Shown here piece after piece: positions 1 to 5,221 of a DNA stretch of 54,814 nucleotides. The stretch covers positions 1 through 54,814 of the forward strand of contig DASSHM010000081.1 of NCBI GenBank assembly GCA_035692885.1, given 5' to 3'. Source of the stretch: Terracidiphilus sp. (GTDB lineage Bacteria; Acidobacteriota; Terriglobia; Terriglobales; Acidobacteriaceae). Position numbers and translations under genes: made by a program. The notes below the pieces were generated by a model. The model had not been told where the DNA came from. It was given only the letters and a program-made list of their open reading frames with translations, and made no database searches. Position 1 is the first letter of the stretch; every line of letters starts with the position of its first letter.

Positions 1-14
1 CCAGCATTTTCAGT

Positions 15-43
15 TTGACCCAGCACCCGGGTGCCGATATACT
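15..43 (+). promoter_or_regulatory. sigma70-type promoter of the cys leader/operon
   Basis: TTGACC (15-20), 17-bp spacer, TATACT (38-43). The predicted start site (~50-51) coincides with the ATG at 51. Confidence 0.85.
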
Positions 44-50
44 CGCCTCT

Positions 51-119
51 ATGAGCTTGTGCCTCATTCCGGCCATGTGTTGTGCGTGTTGTTGCACGCC
101 GCGCCGGACTGTGGGGTAA
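51..119 (+). CDS. Cys-rich leader (attenuator) peptide MSLCLIPAMCCACCCTPRRTVG
   Basis: Hand-translated, ATG 51 to TAA 117-119. Six Cys codons, five of them clustered at 78-95. No SD (leaderless). Lies directly upstream of a terminator and cysD. Confidence 0.8.
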   Translation: MSLCLIPAMCCACCCTPRRTVG

Positions 120-158
120 GCCAGCCTTAAGCTAAATACGCATCCCATAGGCCCGCGC
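101..158 (+). promoter_or_regulatory. antiterminator hairpin of cys attenuator
   Basis: 101-116 (GCGCCGGACTGTGGGG) pairs with 143-158 (TCCCATAGGCCCGCGC) at 14/16 positions including G-U pairs. This sequesters the 5' arm of the terminator. Confidence 0.7.
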
Positions 159-193
159 TGCAGACTTTCTGCCGCTGCGGGTTTTTTATTTTT
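152..193 (+). terminator. intrinsic terminator (attenuator) upstream of cysD
   Basis: Stem CCCGCGCTGCAGA / TCTGCCGCTGCGGG (152-181, one mismatch, one bulge) followed by TTTTTTATTTTT (182-193). Confidence 0.85.
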
Positions 194-218
194 GCACTCA
201 AGCAATTGGAGAATCTGA

Positions 219-1187
219 ATGGCCCTGCTCGCCAATGCAGCCTCAACCATCACCCCGGAAGGCCCCGAAGCCGCCGCTCCGCTCTCGGCCAACCGGCTGA
301 ATCATATGCAGTTGCTCGAGGCGGAGAGCATTCATATCATGCGCGAGGTGGTGGCGGAGTTTCAAAAGCCGGTGATGCTCTACTCCATCGGCAAAGACTC
401 ATCGGTCATGCTGCGGCTGGCGCAGAAGGCATTCCATCCGGCCCCCATTCCGTTCCCGCTGCTTCATGTGGATACCGGGTACAAATTCCGCGAGATGCTT
501 GAGTTTCGCGATCGTTACACCGCGGAGCTGGGGCTCAAGCTGATCGTCTGGCGCAATGAAGAGGCGATTGCGCAGGGAGCCAATCCCATTCAATTGGGCA
601 CGCAACGCTGCTGCGGATTGCTGAAGACTCAGGCTCTGCTGGATGGCCTGCGCGCGCATGGCTTTGATGCCGCATTCGGCGGCGCGCGGCGCGACGAGGA
701 GAAGTCACGCGCCAAGGAGCGTATCTTTTCCTTCCGCGATGGCGCCGGGCAGTGGGACCCCAAGAACCAGCGGCCGGAGCTGTGGAACCTGTTCAACGGC
801 CGCATCGGTCCCGGCGAGAGCATCCGCGTCTTCCCGCTTTCCAATTGGACCGAGCTTGATATCTGGCACTACATCCACCTTGAGAAAATTCCCATCGTGC
901 CGCTCTATCTCGCCAAGGAGCGCCGCATGCTGGTTCGCGGAGACAGTCTTATCCCTCTTGAGCAGCCGTTTGTGAAGGGGCTTCCCGGCGAAGAGCAGTG
1001 GATCAGGTGCCGCCTGCGCTCGCTGGGTTGCAGTCCGTGCACCGGCGCCATCCGTTCCGACGCTGACACGGTGCCCAAAATCATCGCCGAGCTGGTTGAA
1101 ATGCGGAACTCCGAGCGCGCCAATCGCGTCATCGACCACGACCAGGACGGCTCGATGGAGCTGAAGAAGCGTGAGGGCTACTTTTGA
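219..1187 (+). CDS. cysD: sulfate adenylyltransferase subunit 2
   Basis: [23 protein letters not shown]-loop, [16 protein letters not shown]-terminal [17 protein letters not shown] at 208-211. Confidence 0.97.
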
Positions 1188-2851
1188 TGATCTCTGCAGA
1201 GGATGATGTTCTGACCACCCCCGGCGCGACCGGTGACTCAGCCGATGCGCAGATCGAGGCGCGGCTTGAGGCTGACCGCGCCAAGGACCTTCTGCGCTTC
1301 AGCACGGCGGGCAGCGTGGATGACGGCAAGTCAACCCTGATTGGCAGGCTTCTGTATGACTCGCGCAACGTGTACGACGATCATGTGCGCGCCGTCACCC
1401 ATAACGCGGCCATCGACTTCGCGCAGCTTACTGACGGGTTGCGTGCCGAGCGTGAGCAGGGAATCACCATCGATGTTGCCTATCGCTACTTCACCACCCC
1501 CCGGCGCAAGTTCATCATCGCGGACACGCCCGGGCACGAGCAGTACACGCGCAATATGGCCACGGGCGCCTCCACGGCCGATGTGGCCATCGTGCTGGTC
1601 GATGCCCGCAAGGGCATTCTTGACCAGACGCGCCGCCACGCCTGCATCGCGGCCCTGCTCGGCATTCCCATCGTGATTGCCGCCGTCAACAAGATGGACC
1701 TGCTGGACTTTTCGCAGGAGGTCTTTGACCGCCATCACCAGGCGCTGCGCGCGCTGGCCGCGCAGCTTGAGATTCCCGAGCTGATCGCGGTGCCGGTCAG
1801 CGCCCTTGATGGCGACAACGTGGTGCATCGCAGCAGTCGCACGCCGTGGTATGACGGCCCCAGCCTGCTTGAGCTGCTTGAGACCGTGCCGCTGGCGATT
1901 CAGCGTTCGCGGGTGGGCTTCCGCTTTCCCGTGCAGCGGGTGCTCCGCCCGCATCAGGACTTCCGCGGCTTTGCCGGGCAGATTACCGCGGGGGTGGTGC
2001 GCCCCGGCGACGAGGTGCTGGCGCTGCCATCCGGCCGTCGCACCCGTGTCCGCTCCATCGCCGCCTGGGAGGGCGAGCTGGATCGGGCCTTTGCGCCGCA
2101 ATCGGTGGTGCTCACGCTGGCCGACGAAACCGACGTGAGCCGGGGCGAGATGCTCGCTTCGATTGAGGAGCCGCCGCACAAGACGCGGCACTTTGACGCC
2201 ACCGTGGTGTGGATGCACGCAAAGCCGCTGCGGATGGGCTCAACCTACCTGCTCAAGCACACCAGCCAGACGGTGCGTGCCCGGGTCGTTGAGATCCGCT
2301 CCCGCATCAATGTCGAGCATCTTGAGCACAACCCCGCCGAACAGCTTGCGCTCAACGACATTGGCCAGGTCGTCATTGAAACCAGCCGCCCCATTCTGGC
2401 GGATCTCTACCGCGACAGCCGGGCCACCGGGAGCCTCATCCTCATTGACCCGGCCGACAACGCTACCGCCGGCGCGGGCATGATTCGCAGTATTGACGAT
2501 GCGGCCGAAGCGGAGTCGGAGATCAGCCGCACCACCCGCGGGGTGGTTGTGGTCGGCAATCGTGCCGGCCTCGCCGCCCAGCTTGAGCAGGCGCTACTGC
2601 AGGCTGGAGCGCTGGTGCTGCGCACCCGCGTTTCCTCGCCGGCCCCGCTGGCCGCAATTGCGCGGCTCGGCGCGGTGGTGCTGGTCGAGAGCGATGACCC
2701 GGACCCCATCACACTCACGTCGCCGCATCTTGCCGGTGCATCACCGCGCGAGCTCGCTTTTGATGACGCTGAGTCGATTCTCAACGAAATTCAGCGCCTC
2801 GGCGCGATCCCCCATGGAGAAGATGTCAATGACGATGGACTGGGTATCTGA
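1184..2851 (+). CDS. cysN: sulfate adenylyltransferase subunit 1 (GTPase) with degenerate C-terminal CysC-like remnant
   Basis: [38 protein letters not shown] and NKMD motifs. Overlaps the cysD stop. Confidence 0.95.
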
Positions 2852-3515
2852 AGTCGAGCAGCGCGCGGCGGATGCGCGCGGGTTCCTGCGCCAGCGGCTG
2901 CACAATGCATCCAATGCGTGCGTCACCAGCAGTTTTCAGGCGGAGGACGTTGTGGTGCTGCACATGGTGCGCGAGCTGCTCCCCCGCGTTCCGGTCTTGT
3001 TTCTGGAAACCGGTTATCACTTTCCTGAGACGCTCGAGTATCGCGACAGAATTGCAGCCGAGTGGAATCTGAATCTTGTGAATGTGCTGCCCGAGCGAAC
3101 CGTAGCCGAGCAGGAGTCGGAGTTCGGCATCCTCTATCAAAGCGCGCCCGACCGCTGCTGCGGTCTGCGCAAGGTGGAGCCTCTTTTCCGGGCGCTTGGC
3201 TCCTACGGAATCTGGGTTACTGGTCTGCGGCGTCAGCAGTCCAAGTCGCGAGCCAATCTGCAGGCCGAGGAGCCATTCGCGCTTCCCTCCGGGCATACGC
3301 TCACGAAGCTCAGCCCGCTGGCGGAGTGGAGCACGCGCGACGTGTGGCATTACGCGCAGACGCGGGGCATTCCGCTGTTGCCTCTCTATGACCGCGGCTA
3401 CACAAGCATAGGCTGCGCGCCATGCACCACTCTTCCGTTTGATCCCGGCGACCCGCGTTCCGGCCGCTGGTCGGGCCGCAAGCTCGAGTGCGGCATTCAC
3501 ATTCAGGCCTCGTAG
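2829..3515 (+). CDS. cysH: APS/PAPS reductase, [4Fe-4S] APS-reductase type
   Basis: ETGYHFPET, CCGLRKVEP, SIGCAPCT, RSGRW, ECGIH. Start placed at 2829 after GGAG (2823 and 2835 also possible). The longer ORF from 2493 overlaps cysN. Confidence 0.92.
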   Translation: MTMDWVSEVEQRAADARGFLRQRLHNASNACVTSSFQAEDVVVLHMVRELLPRVPVLFLETGYHFPETLEYRDRIAAEWNLNLVNVLPERTVAEQESEFGILYQSAPDRCCGLRKVEPLFRALGSYGIWVTGLRRQQSKSRANLQAEEPFALPSGHTLTKLSPLAEWSTRDVWHYAQTRGIPLLPLYDRGYTSIGCAPCTTLPFDPGDPRSGRWSGRKLECGIHIQAS

Positions 3516-3529
3516 GGCTGGAGCACGTT

Positions 3530-4294
3530 GTGGAACTCTTGTTGGGCTTTCTGATTGCCGCGCTGATTGCGATGACCGGCGTGGGCGCGGGCACCGTTAC
3601 CGCACCGCTGCTCATCCTGTTCATGAACATGCCGGTGTCGATTGCGGTGGGAACGGCGCTCGCGTATTCGGCGGCGGTCAAGCTCGTGGTTGTGCCGGTG
3701 CAGATTGCGCGCCGCAACGTGGTGTGGCGGACGGCCGGCGTCATGATGCTCACCGGCATTCCCGGTGTCGTGCTGGGAACCATCTTCTTCCGTCATGTTG
3801 CCCGTCGGCCCGGCAGCTCCATCTGGCTCTATCTGGCGCTCGGCGGCATGATCGCCCTCTCCTCCGCCTGGCATGTTTACCGCCACTTCCGCCCCGCCCG
3901 GGAAGGACGCCAGCGCTCGTACCGCCCCGGATGGCTGGCCGCCGCCATGTTCCCCGTGGGCGCCGAGGTTGGTTTCTCATCCTCCGGCGCAGGCGCGCTG
4001 GGCACGCTCGCGCTGCTCGGCCTCACGCGGCTTGATCCGCAGCAGATTGTCGGCACCGACCTCGCCTTCGGACTGTGCCTTTCACTTATCGGCGGCGGAA
4101 TGCACCTCAGTTTCGGCGGACTCGATCCCGCTGTGCTTACACGCCTCATCATCGGCGGGGTCTTCGGCGCCATTGCCGGAACCTCGCTTGCCCCACGGGT
4201 GCCGGCCAAGGTTATGCGTCTGGCACTTTCGCTCTGGCTGCTTGCCATCGGCGTGCAACTCTGCTGGCAGGCCCTGGCCCAGGCTCATCTCTAG
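3530..4294 (+). CDS. TauE/SafE (TSUP) family sulfur-anion permease
   Basis: Multi-TM protein with MTGVGAG..TAP and S.GAGALG repeat motifs and IVGTDL. GTG start after GGAG; follows cysH. Confidence 0.85.
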   Translation: MELLLGFLIAALIAMTGVGAGTVTAPLLILFMNMPVSIAVGTALAYSAAVKLVVVPVQIARRNVVWRTAGVMMLTGIPGVVLGTIFFRHVARRPGSSIWLYLALGGMIALSSAWHVYRHFRPAREGRQRSYRPGWLAAAMFPVGAEVGFSSSGAGALGTLALLGLTRLDPQQIVGTDLAFGLCLSLIGGGMHLSFGGLDPAVLTRLIIGGVFGAIAGTSLAPRVPAKVMRLALSLWLLAIGVQLCWQALAQAHL

Positions 4295-4414: not shown

Positions 4415-5221
4415 TTGGAACGTGAGCTTTACACCGCGCGTCTTGTGCATAAGCGATGCCTCTCCCAGCCGGCGCAGACCTTCCACTTTGAGTTCGTCGT
4501 CGAGGGCGTGGAAAGCTTTCCGTTCATCGCGGGCCAGTTTCTTTCCACCGTGGCGCTGGATGCCGCAGGCAGGGAGCAGGTCCGCGCCTATTCCATTGCG
4601 TCAGCGCCGGACGGCAATCGTTTTGATCTTTGCCTGAATCGGGTCGAGGGCGGCTTCTTTTCCAACCTGCTCGTCGAACTTCCCGACCTGCCTGTCGGCG
4701 GGATGGTCAGGTTTTATGGCCCGAACGGATTTTTTACCCTGCGCCAGCCCATCACCGACTCCCTCCTCGTCGCCACAGGCACCGGTATCGCGCCCTTGCG
4801 GGGTTTTCTGCAATGGCTGTTTCCGAAGGGAGGGCCTGACCGCAGCGAAGGCAGGGACATCTGGCTTGTCTATGGCACCCGGCACGAGAGCGAGTTGTAC
4901 TATCTCGACGAGTTTGAGGCTCTCGCTGTGCACCATCCGAACTTTCACTACCTGGCGTCGCTCAGCCGCGGGCTGGAAAGCTGGCAGGGTCTGCGCGGAT
5001 ACGTGCAGGAGCATGTGGTGCGCATTGTGCATGAGCGCGCGCGCCGTCTGGGGCAATCTCTGCCTCTGCGCCCTCCCGGCCCCACCGTCCCCGCCGCGGA
5101 GCTCCGTTCTGACCTGAATGCCTACGTCTGCGGCCTCAATCACATGATCATCGCCGTGCGCGACGAATTAAAAGCGCTCGGCCTCCACCGCAAACAGATC
5201 ATCACGGAACGCTACGATTAA
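4415..5221 (+). CDS. FAD/NAD(P)-binding oxidoreductase, ferredoxin-NADP reductase family
   Basis: RAYSIAS (FAD), GGFFS, ATGTGIAP (NAD(P)), YVCG, and terminal ERYD. Confidence 0.88.
   Translation: MERELYTARLVHKRCLSQPAQTFHFEFVVEGVESFPFIAGQFLSTVALDAAGREQVRAYSIASAPDGNRFDLCLNRVEGGFFSNLLVELPDLPVGGMVRFYGPNGFFTLRQPITDSLLVATGTGIAPLRGFLQWLFPKGGPDRSEGRDIWLVYGTRHESELYYLDEFEALAVHHPNFHYLASLSRGLESWQGLRGYVQEHVVRIVHERARRLGQSLPLRPPGPTVPAAELRSDLNAYVCGLNHMIIAVRDELKALGLHRKQIITERYD

Follow-up and report, generated by a model that had tools for sequence, protein, structure and literature searches.

The attenuators of the trp and his operons (trpL and hisL of E. coli/Salmonella) combine, in the accessible text of PMC1183508, an ORF with codons for the end product, 1:2, 2:3 and 3:4 helices and an intrinsic terminator, all of which recur in the leader described here. 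As far as the available part of Canestrari et al. goes, no classical attenuator has been described for cysteine and the tested case is translational (10.1101/834739); the same text treats the mycobacterial leaderless polycysteine sORF Ms5788A, which resembles our leader in its consecutive Cys codons, its cysteine-related genes and its occurrence several times per genome (a ribulon). In the accessible portions of two further sources, cysD of M. tuberculosis is predicted to be without a poly-Cys element and is not upregulated (PMC13402693), and poly-Cys elements of this species are also treated (PMC13236596). Three other systems come close, each cited from the part of the source available to us. 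The uORFC-8-2 family (Brewer et al. 2021, PMC8632094) is a predicted tandem-Cys uORF with two stems, a U-run and a model of stalling and read-through; the Deinococcus deserti cysS leader peptide Deide_16409 (PMC4007540, Fig. 6, Table S9) is leaderless, with its start mapped on the ATG, and has two adjacent Cys and a proposed transcription attenuation; and actinobacterial cys leader peptides (Seliverstov et al. 2005, PMC1262725) have stretches of Cys codons in front of cys operons.

The window, by which we mean the whole stretch of DNA analyzed (54,814 nt), is the beginning of contig C81 of genome G000, whose nearest CysD relatives are titled Acidobacteriaceae. It opens with a Cys-rich leader and its terminator, followed by the genes cysD-cysN-cysH-tauE in that order (Table 1). 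We consider it very probable that this leader is a ribosome-mediated transcription attenuator of cysD-cysN-cysH-tauE that senses charged tRNA-Cys, a reading for which conservation, the geometry of promoter and start codon, codon bias and the folding controls all speak. The end of contig C25 (G000:C25:13147-13287) is an exact 141-base overlap with window positions 1-141, so that the assembly break falls within the leader. On the same strand, 120 nt past tauE, lies an FAD/NAD-binding ferredoxin-reductase-like gene (window 4415-5221), whose product might deliver electrons to sulfate reduction or serve a separate purpose.

Table 1. Features of the leader and its operon in the window (positions in nt), and further leaders named by element
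Feature	Position or element	Strand	Basis or type
-35 hexamer TTGACC, sigma-70-type promoter	15..20	+	promoter scan; kept in close relatives
-10 hexamer TATACT; predicted transcription start ~50-51, at or next to leader ATG	38..43	+	spacing-based
Leader ORF, 22 codons, 6 Cys; without Shine-Dalgarno, likely leaderless translation	51..119	+	sequence, relatives
Segment 1; with 103-118 makes predicted 1:2 protector (pause) hairpin	60..73	+	consensus fold, covariation
Regulatory Cys codon cluster (codons 10, 11, 13, 14, 15)	78..95	+	stalls at 10, 11, 13 effective in folding model
Segment 2; pairs with segment 1 or segment 3; covered by ribosome at stop codon	101..117	+	folding
Segment 3; 2:3 antiterminator with 101-117, about -20 to -24 kcal/mol	142..158	+	folding
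3:4 intrinsic terminator hairpin, -19 to -20 kcal/mol	152..181	+	folding
U-tract T6-A-T5; predicted attenuated 3' end ~187-190	182..193	+	sequence
cysD Shine-Dalgarno-like GGAGA; 3' of terminator, outside all four segments	208..212	+	sequence
cysD, sulfate adenylyltransferase subunit 2	219..1187	+	TIGR02039 and NF009214 above cut-off
cysN, sulfate adenylyltransferase subunit 1	1187..2851	+	TIGR02034 and NF003478 above cut-off
cysH, APS/PAPS reductase	2835..3515	+	NF002537 and TIGR00434 above cut-off
tauE, TauE/SafE family membrane protein, overlaps cysH	3488..4294	+	PF01925, E 3e-38
Leader before YeiH putative sulfate exporter	L220		terminator-type
Leader before 1-Cys peroxiredoxin	L218		terminator-type
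Leader before cysH-like gene	L227		terminator-type
Second, highly conserved Cys-leader class without U-tract, before cysD	L014, L016, L019, L020, L051, L053, L056, L061, L064, L065; metagenome L145-L165		

We looked into how the promoter and the leader ORF are placed with respect to each other. The promoter claimed in the sequence-only reading, TTGACC-N17-TATACT, is there to the letter (15-20 and 38-43), and a promoter scan of positions 1-1500 agrees: it returned 2 sites (0.3 ± 0.5 in shuffles), of which the cys promoter, with 10/12 matches, was the only one on the + strand. With its 17-nt spacer and 7 nt from TATACT to the ATG at 51, it would start transcription at 51, judging by the promoter-ATG spacing, with a leader of 1-3 nt possible. 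The 22-codon ORF (51-119), translated as MSLCLIPAMCCACCCTPRRTVG, likewise agrees exactly with that reading, its six Cys codons beginning at 60, 78, 81, 87, 90 and 93 and four of them being TGT. When the promoter was chosen blind to the ORF, as the best sigma-70 match upstream of the terminator, an ATG or GTG followed 4-10 nt past the -10 box in 33 of the first 40 leaders, and this start codon was in frame with the Cys run in 30 of those 33 (chance, one in three). An SD-like motif preceded the start in only 2 of 68 leaders. Over the same 68 leaders, Cys made up 22.5% of residues, against 1.1% in long ORFs, and Met 3.8%, against 2.0% genome-wide. Cys and Met codons alternate in four leaders (L025, L027, L032 and L035), which could sense methionine in addition.

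The same layout was found before the cys operon at 67 other loci, giving 68 leaders with that of the window and bearing out the conservation of Cys runs for which the sequence-only reading had proposed an alignment; leaders were chosen by Cys and terminator filters, and their sequences are related rather than independent, so that all counts overstate. CysD was present in 44 of 151 family genomes, and among the 44 cysD loci examined from other genomes, 18 had a Cys ORF and a terminator, a 19th (L031) being seen afterwards; operon heads may be missed here, as 29 of the 44 loci had only about 1.5 kb of upstream DNA or less. In the genome collection the element was present at 21 of 80 loci, all titled Acidobacteriota (Acidobacteriaceae, Terriglobia, Acidiferrales and Vicinamibacterales); within DNA of up to 7 kb, it was absent from the 23 loci whose titles name other phyla and from every Bryobacterales-type locus. 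A set of 80 metagenome loci comprised 7 with too little upstream DNA, 26 without a leader, 15 with a terminator-less leader and 32 with a terminator-type leader; 28 of the last were kept (three were dropped as terminator-less type and one as doubtful), five of them re-anchored on the U-tract. A degenerate DNA pattern search was rejected as uninformative, its matches being about as frequent as for a reversed control.

Conservation within the leader bears on whether the peptide itself could act, either as a nascent Cys-rich sensor (a TnaC-like arrest peptide for metal, redox state or free cysteine) or in trans. The leader peptides of close relatives share a CCxCCC core and, at the C terminus, RRT-x-G, and one leader copy stands before a 1-Cys peroxiredoxin (L218), both of which would suit such a role. 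Across the first 40 leaders, however, length ranged from 13 to 39 codons and Cys number from 3 to 9, with flanking residues widely variable, and the conserved 3' part is accounted for by RNA pairing read in different frames. In 44 of 68 scored leaders, the base that invades the terminator in the minimum-energy fold fell within the ORF, on the first, second and third base of a codon in 7, 12 and 25 cases and within codons for seven amino acids, which points to selection on the RNA. We thus regard a peptide sensor as very unlikely, and in the attenuator that we favor the peptide is probably a by-product.

Codon usage was assessed next to amino acid content. The TGT excess that the sequence-only reading called unexpected is modest in the window leader taken alone (genome TGT fraction 0.21, P = 0.02) and strong over the 68 leaders, where UGU accounts for 300 of 410 Cys codons (73%, against about 20% genome-wide). 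In cysD itself, taken from the first 40 loci, 11 of 187 Cys codons were UGU, and U-ending codons for F, H, N, D and Y in the same leaders numbered 45 of 154. The only tRNA-Cys anticodon found in G000 is GCA (two genes), which makes UGU the wobble codon. In silico recoding of TGT to TGC stabilized the ribosome-free fold by a median of 1.6 kcal/mol (42/68), so that structure may account for part of the bias.

Short triplet repeats are the targets of TRAP- and HutP-type proteins, and an enrichment in UGU as strong and specific as this one could be read as the binding site of an RNA-binding protein, or a metabolite could flip the hairpins, with the ORF incidental in either case. We give this even less credence than a peptide sensor. 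The Cys run is in frame with a promoter-proximal start in 30 of 33 leaders, and UGC makes up about 27% of the Cys codons in the leaders, meaning that the amino acid is kept though the triplet changes. An Rfam search of positions 1-400 up to E = 10, which also counts against such a ligand, gave no riboswitch, T-box or SAM match and returned only Trp_leader (E = 2.9), well under its gathering score.

We then evaluated the helices on which an attenuator would depend. The claimed pairing of 101-116 with 143-158 was reproduced at 14 of 16 positions, two of them G-U, and the fold adds 117:142; the claimed terminator and U-tract (182-193) also held, the hairpin folding at the energy given in Table 1. 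Positions 152-158 belong both to segment 3 and to the terminator's 5' arm, so that antiterminator and terminator are mutually exclusive. The 1:2 hairpin encloses a smaller one over the Cys codons (77-102), and 51-120 as a whole folds at -30.8 kcal/mol. The U-tract began 48-90 nt past the leader stop in 68 of 68 leaders, mostly 55-72 nt, a spacing partly fixed by the search window. Positions 51-200 folded with a z of -2.68, and 1 of 200 shuffles was equally stable.

For a consensus fold, we aligned 11 close relatives. The 1:2 helix, absent from the sequence-only reading, had 95% of its cells paired (29-50% in slid controls) and 10 cells changed on both sides, and on three of five measures of covariation none of 500 shuffles reached as high. 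The 2:3 helix, for which that reading had also hoped for covariation, gave none by a fixed-column count (477-499 of 500 shuffles as high); its inner pairs are almost invariant and its outer half shifts register. The 2:3 antiterminator can nevertheless form in 11 of 11 close relatives, at -15 to -25 kcal/mol, and their cognate duplexes were better than non-cognate ones for both helices (3 of 20,000 permutations for 1:2 and 94 of 20,000 for 2:3). A cruder duplex cross-matrix of 40 leaders placed the cognate pair top in only 1 of 40, with a mean z of -0.5 (2 of 20,000 permutations) and 8 of 40 leaders beating their own shuffles at P ≤ 0.05, a signal that is only modest because the windows clipped parts of the helix.

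To gauge chance occurrence, the genome was scanned for similar arrangements. Among 197 Cys-rich short ORFs, 15 had a terminator-like site and only the window leader also had a promoter scoring at least 8; among 129 promoter-proximal short ORFs, a strong terminator followed 2, namely the window leader and a His-rich leader before hisI-hisG-hisD. The strict scan overlooked a leader on contig C62, which has only three Cys and was recovered by a covariance model. A relaxed scan of 1,661 CC-containing short ORFs returned 6 matches, comprising the window leader, the C62 leader and 4 others. Three of these 4 were inspected and set aside, one being a terminator at the end of a gene, one lying within a gene and one having no fitting gene; the fourth (C228) duplicates one of them.

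Folding under ribosome constraints, the check proposed in the sequence-only reading, gave a switch in a co-transcriptional model and none at full-length equilibrium. With ribosome masks on the full-length leader, the terminator had a probability of at least 0.83 in every ribosome state. The half-antiterminator plus terminator (-28.0 kcal/mol) outweighed the full antiterminator plus upper hairpin (-25.1 kcal/mol), so that the terminator state was favored by about 3 kcal/mol at full length even with a stalled ribosome. The upper 5-bp hairpin of the terminator (160-172) is compatible with the antiterminator and could, in this model, act as a seed for displacing it. In the co-transcriptional window model, where RNA had emerged to 180 and RNA 5' of the ribosome was held unpaired, the terminator arm was paired upstream at 0.83, 0.80 and 0.69 for stalls at Cys10, Cys11 and Cys13, and stalls at Cys14-15 did not antiterminate; when RNA 5' of the ribosome was left free, the Cys13 value dropped to 0.33. 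The terminator stood at 0.85 without a ribosome and at 0.85 with one at the stop codon, in line with the claim that a ribosome there masks 101-116 and leads to termination.

We extended this model to the other leaders. A best-of-Cys switch score suffered from selection bias, and we used a fixed stall rule instead. Under that rule, the mean terminator probability of 40 leaders was 0.15 for the native stall, 0.55 at the stop, 0.42 with a shuffled 3' part of the ORF and 0.37 for chimeras with another leader's ORF, and the native value was below these three controls in 39/40, 37/40 and 37/40 leaders, respectively. The held-out set of 28 metagenome leaders behaved likewise and more weakly, with means of 0.29 (native), 0.59 (stop), 0.46 (shuffled) and 0.42 (chimeric) and native values lower in 26/28, 20/28 and 17/28; under other settings the counts were 15-22/28 (shuffled) and 16-20/28 (chimeric). 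The six closest relatives in this set all fell under their stop and shuffle values. Since the switch appears only in co-transcriptional folding and not at equilibrium, we infer that the mechanism, as modeled, relies on kinetic pre-emption.

The dominance of the terminator at equilibrium would also suit a fixed, leaky terminator, for example for the transcript of a pterin-4a-carbinolamine dehydratase gene known from C25, with cysDNH controlled at initiation only. This gene lies upstream of the cys promoter on the same strand; its stop and the -35 box are separated by about 25 nt, in which we found no terminator. A fixed hairpin leaves unexplained the conserved promoter, the in-frame Cys run and the covarying 1:2 helix; the same cassette also heads other sulfur genes whose upstream DNA is different, and the promoter scan found no second promoter between the terminator and cysD. 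We therefore rank this account below a protein or metabolite switch, as very improbable indeed.

In the attenuation mechanism that we propose, transcription would begin at the ATG at 51 or 1-2 nt upstream of it, and a 70S ribosome would load leaderlessly; the 1:2 hairpin would hold polymerase in a pause that ends when the ribosome melts the hairpin. With plentiful cysteine, the ribosome would reach the stop (117-119) and mask segment 2, the terminator (152-181) would form, and an RNA of about 140 nt would be released. With scarce Cys-tRNA, it would stall at Cys10, 11 or 13, the stall perhaps lengthened by wobble reading of UGU by tRNA-Cys GCA, and mask segment 1; the freed 101-117 would capture 142-158 before the terminator's 3' arm exits polymerase, with read-through into cysD. 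With no ribosome, 1:2 would form and termination would be the default. By sequence and the co-transcriptional model, the element thus has every testable hallmark of a trp/his-type attenuator that we considered, namely the Cys ORF, terminator, antiterminator, 1:2 hairpin and spacing. The sequence-only reading of a cysteine-sensing attenuator of cysDNH therefore stands on conservation, geometry, codon bias and folding, with the amendments that the predicted switch is kinetic only, that in the model only stalls at Cys10, Cys11 and Cys13 work and that the 1:2 helix had been overlooked.

We performed a search for further members with the covariance model, which was built from 11 close leaders and gave matches in 21 of the 151 family genomes. 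We inspected 23 matches that were not in the training set: 17 preceded a nitrite/sulfite reductase (one by Pfam, the others by evident translation similarity), and the remainder were one YeiH putative sulfate exporter, one 1-Cys peroxiredoxin, one cysH-like gene, the C25 overlap and two without a Cys ORF. The second Cys leader in G000 (C62:10509-10562; element L230, C62:10509-10644, with terminator) has 17 codons, 3 Cys and a promoter-like site, and its minimum-energy folds switch between stall and stop. It precedes a nitrite/sulfite reductase and a cysG-like gene, which makes the pair of leaders look like a small regulon; the reductase is under all NCBIfam cut-offs and closest to NirA, so its sulfite specificity follows from context. 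Within 330 nt upstream, cysS of G000 had no short ORF with at least two Cys, and four cysK/M-like genes had no convincing Cys leader. The His-rich ORF (G000:C272:7835-7912, minus strand, element L237), with 25 codons and a terminator before hisI-hisG-hisD, has 5 of 7 His codons ending in U; by its sequence it is likely a leaderless histidine attenuator of the textbook type, of the same build as the Cys leader, and serves as an internal control.

At about 20 genome loci, a Cys ORF preceded cysD without a U-tract. In nine aligned leaders of this class, a GGGTG:CACCC pairing across the stop codon was kept, with C-rich spacers and further hairpins toward the cysD ribosome-binding site. Rho is present in G000, and the output of the terminator-less leaders may be Rho-dependent or translational. 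A same-genus genome (G062, L016) has the terminator-less class, and its CysD is 75% identical to that of the window, against 82-91% in other genera, which hints, from sequence comparison, at exchange of the operon along with its leader. Further terminator-less Cys leaders are L015, L018, L028, L029, L039, L052, L055, L060, L062 and L078, several of which have Cys codons directly at the stop codon, as in the actinobacterial type. Extra Cys-rich short ORFs lie upstream of cysD in L061 (about 2.2 kb) and in L056 and L060 (about 3.7 kb) and are possibly leaders of neighboring sulfur genes. That the window leader itself acts translationally as in mycobacteria, a stalled ribosome exposing the cysD ribosome-binding site, has in its favor these roughly 20 related Acidobacteriota leaders, which may do so, and the translational action of the only tested polycysteine leader found (10.1101/834739, available part), but the cysD Shine-Dalgarno (208-212) lies beyond a strong terminator, where none of the conserved helices reaches, and we consider this the least credible account of all.

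Taking the leaders together, we lean slightly toward a broader proposal, in which sulfate assimilation in Acidobacteriota is under a lineage-wide, ribosome-run regulon, with leaderless, UGU-selected Cys leaders before cysDNH, sulfite reductase and sulfur transport. One sensor module would have two outputs by lineage, an intrinsic terminator or a terminator-less switch acting through Rho or the ribosome-binding site; a 70S ribosome loading without a leader would arrive quickly enough for the timing of a full four-segment attenuator, and selection would favor UGU, read by wobble, for tuning the stall. The element would offer a testable intrinsic-termination attenuator for cysteine and a first view of sulfur-assimilation control in a major soil phylum. 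Two general questions become testable: whether a leaderless start of translation couples to polymerase closely enough for terminator choice, and why an amino acid with one tRNA shows strong synonymous selection (73% UGU against 20%). For annotation, TauE, YeiH and the peroxiredoxin are flagged as cysteine-responsive because their genes sit behind such leaders. The textbook principle and the predicted cysS versions limit the surprise. A large attenuator survey by the Lyubetsky group, reportedly from 2010, could include related predictions.

Compared with trpL and hisL, the window leader senses Cys, is likely leaderless and controls sulfate assimilation, and it has no sequence homology to the Rfam Trp_leader (RF00513; 14.8 bits, the gathering score being 41). 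The sequence-only reading was aware of no classical intrinsic-terminator Cys attenuator, and a claim of novelty on that ground is too strong: in the accessible text of PMC8632094, uORFC-8-2 is already predicted before cysS with an intrinsic terminator, and Cys leaders have been proposed for transcription attenuation of cysS there and in the available part of PMC4007540. That it knew of none in Acidobacteriota either agrees with our full-text literature searches, which found none and whose coverage mostly excludes subscription journals; the accessible portions of PMC2965389, PMC4833913, PMC8079986, PMC10783764 and PMC1183508 contain no Acidobacteriota Cys leader. The remaining differences are again taken from the parts of these sources available to us. 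Mycobacterial polycysteine leaderless ORFs act on translation (10.1101/834739), whereas the window leader has an intrinsic terminator and a cysD SD outside the helices. The uORFC-8-2 family occurs only before cysS in Rhodobacterales, with two Cys and UGC dominant (PMC8632094), whereas our leader stands before cysD with UGU dominant. Deide_16409 has 10 codons and precedes cysS (PMC4007540), and the actinobacterial cys leaders have no terminator hairpins, Rho-dependent termination being suggested (PMC1262725). The window leader is thus outside the mycobacterial translational class, having a terminator and a free SD, and outside uORFC-8-2, being before cysD and not cysS. What is new is likely the combination: a likely leaderless, UGU-selected poly-Cys sensor joined to a four-segment intrinsic switch, with sulfate-assimilation targets, in Acidobacteriota and at several loci per genome.
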